The translations under genes were made by a program, and so were the position numbers. From the NCBI RefSeq assembly GCF_003334765.1, contig NZ_QOWT01000010.1: 64,000 bases of DNA; one strand, written 5' to 3'. Positions 62,401 through 64,000 of the stretch are shown here, piece after piece (position 1 is the stretch's first letter; each line of letters begins with the position of its first letter). The notes below the pieces were generated by a model that saw nothing but the letters and a program-made list of their open reading frames with translations, made no database searches and was not told the origin of the DNA. The DNA comes from Escherichia coli (lineage in GTDB: Bacteria > Pseudomonadota > Gammaproteobacteria > Enterobacterales > Enterobacteriaceae).

Positions 62401-62982
<582 letters not shown>

Positions 62983-62991
62983 TGATTTCTC

Positions 62992-63020
62992 GCGCGGGCA
63001 ATCTTGCCCGCGCTTCTGCT
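62992..63020 (+). terminator. Terminator hairpin downstream of ppiA
   Basis: gcgcgggca-atct-tgcccgcgc (9-bp GC stem) followed by ttctgct. Confidence 0.6.
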
Positions 63021-63086
63021 CTCCCGGCGTAACCCGGATTTGCCGCTTATACTTGTGGCAAATGGACACGTTCAGGGAGGCATCAA

Positions 63087-63254
63087 GTGAAGAAACTCAC
63101 CGATAAGCAAAAGTCCCGTCTCTGGGAGCTTCAGCGTAATCGTAATTTTCAGGCCAGTCGCCGTCTTGAAGGCGTCGAGATGCCTTTAGTCACTCTTACT
63201 GCCGCAGAGGCTTTAGCGCGCCTTGAAGAGCTGAGGAGTCACTATGAGCGATAA
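63087..63254 (+). CDS. yhfG: YhfG / FicA-type antitoxin-like small protein (55 aa)
   Basis: Hand translation from GTG at 63087 (gggagg SD 8 nt upstream): [55 protein letters not shown]; contains SxxxEG (S24...E28-G29); overlaps the fic start by 11 nt. Below the ORF-track size cutoff. Confidence 0.72.
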
Positions 63255-63846
63255 ATTCGGCGAAGGGCGCGATCCGTATCTTTATCCAGGCCTTGATATC
63301 ATGCGTAACCGGCTGAACATCCGCCAGCAGCAGCGGCTGGAACAGGCCGCTTACGAAATGACGGCGCTGCGTGCTGCGACCATTGAGCTTGGTCCGCTGG
63401 TGCGCGGTTTACCGCATTTGCGAACTATCCATCGCCAGCTGTATCAGGATATTTTCGACTGGGCAGGGCAACTGCGTGAAGTTGATATTTATCAGGGTGA
63501 TACGCCGTTCTGCCACTTTGCTTATATCGAAAAAGAGGGCAATGCCCTGATGCAGGATCTGGAGGAAGAAGGTTATCTGGTTGGCCTGGAGAAAGCGAAG
63601 TTCGTCGAGCGGCTGGCGCATTACTATTGTGAAATCAACGTGCTGCATCCCTTCCGGGTGGGAAGTGGTCTGGCACAGCGGATCTTCTTCGAGCAACTGG
63701 CGATTCATGCCGGATATCAACTGAGCTGGCAGGGTATCGAAAAAGAGGCCTGGAATCAGGCAAATCAGAGTGGGGCAATGGGGGATCTCACCGCACTGCA
63801 GATGATATTTAGCAAAGTGGTAAGCGAAGCCGGGGAATCTGAGTAA
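63244..63846 (+). CDS. fic: Fic (FIC-domain protein, class I FicT-like)
   Basis: 200-aa [28 protein letters not shown]; FIC-motif position reads [12 protein letters not shown]. Confidence 0.92.
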
Positions 63847-63877
63847 AATAGCGCGGTTCTTTTGTACCGGAGCCGCC

Positions 63878-64000
63878 ATGATCCTGCTTATAGATAACTA
63901 CGATTCTTTTACCTGGAACCTCTACCAGTACTTTTGTGAACTGGGGGCGGATGTGCTGGTTAAGCGCAACGATGCGTTGACGCTGGCGGATATCGACGCC
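63878..64000 (+). CDS. pabA: Aminodeoxychorismate synthase component II (5' end only; continues beyond window)
   Basis: Hand translation from ATG at 63878: [41 protein letters not shown], the glutamine amidotransferase N-terminus. Confidence 0.85.

Follow-up and report, generated by a model that had tools for sequence, protein, structure and literature searches.

The yhfG-fic pair of Escherichia coli is probably a re-purposed FIC enzyme gated by YhfG and working with another donor or on another target, and neither a decaying toxin nor an addiction module that adenylylates gyrase. Decay is argued against because the hydrophobic residues at positions 139 and 143 of Fic, its His135 and R146, and the SxxxEG motif of YhfG are all kept under purifying selection in the Enterobacteriaceae. 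We infer an enzyme with a new substrate, as the most likely reading, from conservation alone, and purifying selection is just as compatible with a role in binding that involves no catalysis.

According to the mechanism proposed here, an ancestral class I FicTA toxin-antitoxin (TA) module would have given rise to a vertically inherited chromosomal pair expressed in stationary phase. In the 1:1 complex seen in the crystal structures, Glu28 of YhfG locks R146 (R2) of Fic. The latter no longer has the three residues by which canonical AMP-transferases hold ATP and Mg2+ (V139 replaces E/D, S141 replaces N and L143 replaces R1), and once released from YhfG it may use a donor other than ATP in the canonical pose, on a further target.

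Locus Layout and Identity of the Pair

The locus is the ordinary yhfG-fic operon of E. coli K-12, whose altered active site and intact antitoxin motif were already published in 2016. It was studied in a window of 64,000 nucleotides, which is the whole stretch of DNA analysed. The region 62990-63900 of this window shows 100% nucleotide identity to E. coli K-12 MG1655, so the sequence-only reading was right to suppose that the window carries the native allele of the founding E. coli Fic. The same region is present in 5426/5426 complete E. coli genomes, nearly always as a single chromosomal copy. In the RefSeq annotation of MG1655, it encodes yhfG and fic, which lie between tsgA-ppiA and pabA-argD-yhfK. 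The features of the locus are as follows.

62992..63013, + strand: intrinsic-terminator-like hairpin of ppiA, with a 9-bp G+C stem, separating ppiA from the yhfG-fic unit
63048..63053, + strand: TATACT, candidate -10 of an RpoS-dependent fic promoter (sequence reading)
63075..63080, + strand: Shine-Dalgarno sequence of yhfG, GGGAGG, 6 nt ahead of the GTG start
63087..63254, + strand: yhfG (EcFicA), GTG start, 55 aa, FicA-type antitoxin-like inhibitor
63156..63173, + strand: codons for S24-R-R-L-E28-G29, the [S/T]xxxE[G/N] inhibitory-helix motif (read from sequence)
63233..63238, + strand: Shine-Dalgarno sequence of fic, GAGGAG, within the yhfG coding sequence and 5 nt ahead of the fic ATG
63244..63254, + strand: overlap of yhfG and fic, 11 nt, ATGAGCGATAA
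63244..63846, + strand: fic (EcFicT), ATG start, 200 aa, class I FIC-domain protein, wild-type allele
63646..63681, + strand: degenerate FIC signature H135-P-F-R-V139-G-S141-G-L143-A-Q-R146 (read from sequence)
63879..64000, + strand: first part of pabA, the gene conserved downstream, which begins 32 nt past the fic stop and continues beyond the window end

The ppiA gene stops at 62982, and the hairpin that follows it folds as RNA with -21.6 kcal/mol (z = -3.5). The sequence AGGGAGG ahead of yhfG is conserved in four other genera, and AGGAG or GGAGG is likewise conserved ahead of the fic start in the orthologues. The internal Shine-Dalgarno sequence of fic, together with the 11-nt overlap, suggests that the two genes are translationally coupled, as is usual with this layout. 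The assignment of pabA is based on the annotation of the identical MG1655 region, and the same gene order is found at every orthologous locus compared. An Rfam scan of the whole window returned no RNA family at or above the gathering score.

The small upstream ORF had been said to carry SxxxEG, with S24, E28 and G29, and to overlap fic by 11 nt. Both statements are correct, as can be read from the codons (S24 = AGT, 63156-58; E28 = GAA, 63168-70; G29 = GGC, 63171-73), which lie in the context Q-A-S24-R-R-L-E28-G29-V, and from the ORF coordinates.

Profile searches place both proteins in their named families. Fic matches the Pfam family Fic (PF02661, E = 1.5e-13) and the NCBIfam equivalog NF007672, "putative AMP-protein transferase Fic", with 430 bits over a cutoff of 181. 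YhfG matches the Pfam family YhfG (PF10832, E = 5.4e-24) as a full-length profile, and NCBIfam NF007573 with 127 bits over a cutoff of 77. Against the equivalog for VbhT-type FicT (NCBIfam NF045983), Fic scores 138 bits, below the cutoff of 800, a shortfall explained in part by the length of that model, whose 419 positions include the C-terminal domain of VbhT.

The pair corresponds to EcFicT/EcFicA, which has been crystallised as a complex (PDB 5JFF and 5JFZ; UniProt P20605/P0ADX5). YhfG matches chain B of 5JFF, the wild-type EcFicA, across all 55 residues (E = 6e-31), and the only differences between the Fic of the window and the crystallised protein are S2G and R27H, plus an engineered G55R present in 5JFF alone. 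Both alleles in the window are wild-type: Fic holds G55 (GGT, 63406-63408), and is therefore not the fic-1 G55R mutant, and YhfG holds E28. A strain-specific or mutant allele is ruled out by the 100% identity to MG1655 and by a motif state that is common to all close clusters.

Codon 27 of fic (CGC, 63322-63324) encodes R27 in the window and in MG1655, while H27 is found in the 5JFF and 5JFZ constructs and in some E. coli clusters. This position also varies between genera, where N, R or H may appear, which indicates that R27/H27 is a neutral polymorphism as judged from the sequences compared.

The architecture is that of a class I Fic protein (FicTA), with a separate 55-aa protein that holds S24xxxE28G29 and is encoded directly upstream, overlapping fic. 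The organisation of a type II TA operon is also present, including the upstream antitoxin gene, the 11-nt overlap and the internal Shine-Dalgarno sequence. However, the patchy mobile distribution of type II systems is not seen, given the occurrence of the pair in all 5426 complete E. coli genomes and between the same flanks in four other genera.

Expression

A simple sigma-70 promoter scan detected no promoter upstream of yhfG. The sequence TATACT, located 34 nt upstream of the yhfG start, is accompanied by no recognisable -35 element and is plausible as the -10 of a stationary-phase, RpoS-dependent promoter. A -10 element of this kind with no -35 fits the RpoS-dependent expression listed for the pair, since yhfG-fic is among the strongly RpoS-dependent genes of E. 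coli O157:H7 (PMC2907692).

A Degenerate FIC Signature Shared by Close Relatives

The signature of EcFic, encoded by CAT CCC TTC CGG GTG GGA AGT GGT CTG GCA CAG CGG, departs from the canonical HxFx[D/E]GNGRxxR at three positions, with V139 in place of the acidic residue, S141 in place of Asn and L143 in place of the first Arg (R1). The register of the motif was set by a phmmer alignment to canonical Fic-1 from Pseudomonas bijieensis 2P24 (PDB 8WT0), which is ungapped over residues 1-196. In this alignment, the Fic-1 motif lying opposite that of EcFic is HPFREGNGRAQR, so that V139, S141 and L143 face E139, N141 and R143. A wrong register is ruled out by this ungapped alignment, and the match to VbhT (E = 6e-33) also spans the motif region. 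The substitution of the three residues by V, S and L, as claimed by the sequence-only reading, is thus borne out, and the check that it had proposed, an alignment against canonical FicT toxins and K-12 Fic, confirmed the register and the absence of the canonical E, N and R. Fic does retain the FIC fold, as well as the catalytic His135, R146 and the two glycines of the loop.

These replacements are not peculiar to E. coli. Among the best 120 Fic clusters, which share 79-100% identity, H135, G140, G142 and R146 are kept in 120/120. Position 139 (L, I, V or F) and position 143 (L, M or I) are hydrophobic in every one of the 120, at position 141 S or N is found in 119 clusters and C in the remaining one, and a fully canonical motif was found in none of them (0/120). 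Of 150 representatives of the wider family, the best at 50% identity, 112 show the complete [DE]-N-R state, and the degenerate state is limited to the EcFic-like cluster and a few oddities.

The sequence-only reading had also pointed out that each replaced codon is a single nucleotide away from a canonical one. The distances are correct for K-12 (GTG/GAG, AGT/AAT and CTG/CGG), but they have no evidential weight, because the genetic code itself produces them. A single change turns any of the four Val codons into Asp or Glu, any CTN Leu codon into Arg and either AGY Ser codon into Asn; hence, the remark is uninformative. The chance that three random non-canonical codons would all be one step from canonical is about 0.05, a value with no bearing on function. 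In the orthologues, position 139 is encoded by TTG, CTC, ATC or ATT (Leu/Ile), which are two steps from Asp or Glu, and position 143 by ATG or ATT (Met/Ile). Codon proximity as a sign of recent inactivation or of easy reversion is therefore ruled out, both as a consequence of the genetic code and by these two-step Leu/Ile orthologues at position 139.

The Inhibitory Motif of YhfG and the Published Complex

A bare match to [ST]xxxE[GN] within 55 residues could arise by chance. The motif of YhfG is nevertheless accepted as real because it is conserved, with SxxxEG kept in at least 114 of the 120 YhfG clusters, and because a salt bridge between E28 and R146 has been published (PMC5033356). The exact form SRRLEG appears in 103/120 clusters.

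The pair was described as EcFicT/EcFicA, with crystal structures, by Stanger, Harms, Dehio and Schirmer (PLoS One 2016; PMC5033356). In that study, YhfG was reported to hold a canonical [S/T]xxxE[G/N] motif and to bind Fic tightly in a 1:1 complex, whose Tm of 63 C is lowered by 10 C by the mutation E28G (PMC5033356). The first helix of YhfG brings Glu28 to the last Arg of the FIC motif, Arg146, with which it forms a salt bridge, as in VbhTA (PMC5033356). The FIC signature of EcFicT was recognised there as degenerate, and the Leu (L143) found in place of R1 was judged to be the most important change (PMC5033356). No auto-adenylylation or target adenylylation could be detected, even with YhfG E28G, a result attributed mainly to L143, and the structure suggests that EcFicT does not bind ATP (PMC5033356). 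The authors also described a conserved hydrophobic groove adjoining the motif, proposed as a site for substrate binding, and concluded from a phylogeny that canonical AMP-transferases gave rise to the EcFicT-like group, which has been inherited vertically between ppiA and pabA in the Enterobacteriaceae (PMC5033356).

The description in the sequence-only reading of an altered active site with no demonstrable AMP-transferase activity agrees with this study. Its statement that the activity and the target of Fic remain open is also still valid, since the mechanism of EcFicT continues to be described as elusive in a 2026 paper. The literature is inconsistent with respect to growth inhibition: a 2024 review states that expression of EcFicT strongly inhibits the growth of E. 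coli (PMC10886550), whereas the primary structure paper regards EcFicT as only "toxin-like", with no adenylylation detected (PMC5033356).

Conservation and Selection

In Salmonella, Klebsiella, Leclercia and Citrobacter, the gene order tsgA-ppiA-yhfG-fic-pabA-argD-yhfK is shared, YhfG and Fic have the same lengths (55 aa and 200 aa), and the 11-nt overlap is identical. Selection was measured by Nei-Gojobori counts, with synonymous sites that are saturated, so the ratios are approximate. With this reservation, fic shows a pN of 0.08-0.13 versus a pS of 0.59-0.75, and yhfG a pN of 0.09-0.18 versus a pS of 0.56-0.92; for comparison, the pN of pabA is 0.06-0.13. Both fic and yhfG are clearly under purifying selection, comparable to that on pabA. 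A decaying pseudogene is ruled out, as pN lies far below pS for both genes and at the level of pabA.

Single-Chain Versions at the Same Locus

In some Enterobacterales, the interval between tsgA-ppiA and pabA-argD is occupied by one ORF instead of two. In Buttiauxella izardii, a single 200-aa ORF (WP_120065544.1, P0290; three independent sequences) replaces yhfG and fic, and the same protein family is found at 1011-1613 of L006 (Logan ERR4228981). In this protein, residues 1 to about 45 of YhfG are in frame with Fic from about residue 38-45. Its FIC motif reads HPFFVGSGRAQR, in which R1 is kept and V and S are present, while the YhfG motif reads SSRLDI. A second type of fusion, of 181-186 aa, joins residues 1-30 of YhfG to Fic from about residue 46, and has been located at the following positions.

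L007, 3001-3546, and L008, 927-1472: second-type fusion P0233
L011, 2501-3049: second-type fusion P0412, from Izhakiella australiensis
L009, 2501-3061, and L010, 231-791: second-type fusion P0413

Fusions of the second type have N or T where the inhibitory Glu would stand. P0412 and P0233 carry Ser instead of the catalytic His (SPFRRGNGRTLR and SPFRCGNARTLR), whereas P0413 reads HPFLRGNGRAQR. Their ORFs are intact, with a pN of 0.26-0.31 versus a saturated pS among P0233, P0412 and P0413, and the fusions evolve faster than the neighbouring genes. As judged from these sequences, the two-gene pair has been converted at least twice into a single chain composed of the YhfG helix and the FIC core, once in Buttiauxella izardii and once in an Izhakiella-like lineage. 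The terms "fusion" and "fused" do not appear in this sense in the 2016 paper (PMC5033356). By comparison, these natural fusions may help a little, and in a new way, to tell which parts of the module can be dispensed with, and represent a modest lead.

Other database entries are likely to have a technical origin. P0129 (212 aa) is a Fic homologue whose whole length shows substitutions (R to C, P to L/F, A to V, H to Y) that match those of C-to-T converted (bisulfite-like) reads assembled from a public run; it is thus a database artefact and not a real variant. P0001 (252 aa) and P0005 (233 aa), found only in Logan assemblies, are single chains identical to E. coli that contain both Pfam domains, YhfG and Fic. 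They probably reflect errors of sequencing or assembly, as proteins of such lengths would be expected if a frameshift in or near the 11-nt overlap had joined both frames.

Alternative Explanations

EcFicT could be a pseudoenzyme or scaffold with no catalysis, the YhfG-Fic complex acting by partner binding and His135 and R146 being kept for structural reasons or for that binding. We regard this as unlikely, even considering the decades that have passed with no EcFicT activity detected and the loss from EcFic of three ATP/Mg-binding residues. The fusions bear on this explanation in two ways. P0412 and P0233 read SPFR... in place of HPFR... in intact ORFs, with 60% identity between them and a pN of 0.26 versus a saturated pS of 0.88, and fused same-locus orthologues of this kind make a His-independent role possible in relatives. 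However, these His-less proteins form a different, faster-evolving lineage, and the His is invariant in the 120 close EcFic-like clusters. The strictly conserved groove next to the motif and the retention of an antitoxin Glu that blocks R2 are also easier to understand with a gated active site. A broader version would hold that the Fic encoded between ppiA and pabA is no longer a transferase and acts instead as a conserved binding or regulatory module capped by YhfG, or possibly erases AMP marks made by foreign FicT proteins. This version is supported by the collapse of the pair to a single chain at least two times, and by fusions that lack the inhibitory Glu, and in two cases the catalytic His, while the ORF persists; even so, it seems quite improbable to us.

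The eraser function alone, in which YhfG-Fic would deAMPylate GyrB or ParE modified by a foreign FicT, takes its model from the closest canonical relative with a solved structure. Fic-1 (39% identity to EcFic, E = 2e-49) AMPylates GyrB, and in complex with AntF it forms a deAMPylase (PMC13327609) that acts on GyrB via E28 of the antitoxin and R146 of Fic. By sequence, the required antitoxin Glu28, R146 and catalytic His are all present in YhfG and EcFic, as is S24, and the lost R1 contacts the beta-phosphate of ATP, a group that is absent from the Tyr-AMP substrate. Nevertheless, the acidic cleft of Fic-1 (E29, E36 and E139), which has been described as essential, corresponds to Q29, A36 and V139, so that the negative cleft is missing from EcFic. 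Moreover, deAMPylation by Fic-1-AntF needs a divalent metal, and the EcFic motif lacks the metal-binding acidic residue; K-12 lacks a canonical FicT of its own that such a complex would counteract, and no published deAMPylation test of EcFicTA was found in the literature covered here. An eraser-only complex is accordingly considered highly improbable. The probability of a conventional FicTA addiction module, in which gyrase and topo IV would be adenylylated after degradation of YhfG, is close to negligible. Such a module would be in keeping with the two-gene architecture and its overlapping upstream antitoxin gene, the structural homology of the pair to VbhTA, the inclusion of EcFicT among growth-inhibiting FicTs in a review (PMC10886550) and the listing of fic-yhfG as a type II TA in TA surveys. 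It conflicts with a motif that is non-canonical at three positions, with the failure of the primary authors to detect adenylylation (PMC5033356), with the score of 138 bits against the cutoff of 800 for the VbhT equivalog, and with a core, syntenic and vertically inherited locus that is not mobile. The re-purposed, YhfG-gated enzyme remains the reading that we favour.

Significance for Annotation

E. coli Fic is the namesake of a very large enzyme family, and its biochemical activity is still elusive, with more than 40 years having passed since the description of the fic-1 mutant. Thousands of enterobacterial genomes carry the annotation "putative adenosine monophosphate-protein transferase Fic", in which the chemistry is probably incorrect. 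The observation made in the sequence-only reading is correct and already known, as it restates the 2016 structure paper; the alignment with VbhT and YeFicT, the YhfG E28G mutant and the adenylylation assays that it had proposed have all been published (PMC5033356). The question of what E. coli Fic does is not advanced by the finding, whose use is that of a reminder on annotation.

Comparison with Known Systems

Precedents for a FIC fold with a divergent motif that uses a different donor are the kinase Doc and the phosphocholine transferase AnkX, both with no specific sequence relationship to EcFic.

The numbering of Fic-1/AntF is identical to that of EcFic/YhfG for H135, R146 and the antitoxin residues S24 and E28. 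Fic-1 differs from EcFic in residues E29, E36, E139, N141 and R143, which are Q, A, V, S and L in the latter, and the deAMPylase analogy is weakened by the absence from EcFic of the three cleft acids.

EcFicTA resembles VbhT/VbhA from Bartonella schoenbuchensis, YeFicT and PaFicT in the class I architecture and the FIC fold, and it shares with VbhTA-type modules the [S/T]xxxE[G/N] inhibitory helix and the salt bridge between Glu and R2. In contrast, VbhT holds the full HxFx[D/E]GNGRxxR motif and adenylylates GyrB and ParE, whereas EcFic, with V139, S141 and L143, shows no detected adenylylation. The two also differ in their mode of inheritance, VbhTA-type modules being horizontally mobile and yhfG-fic a fixed chromosomal locus.
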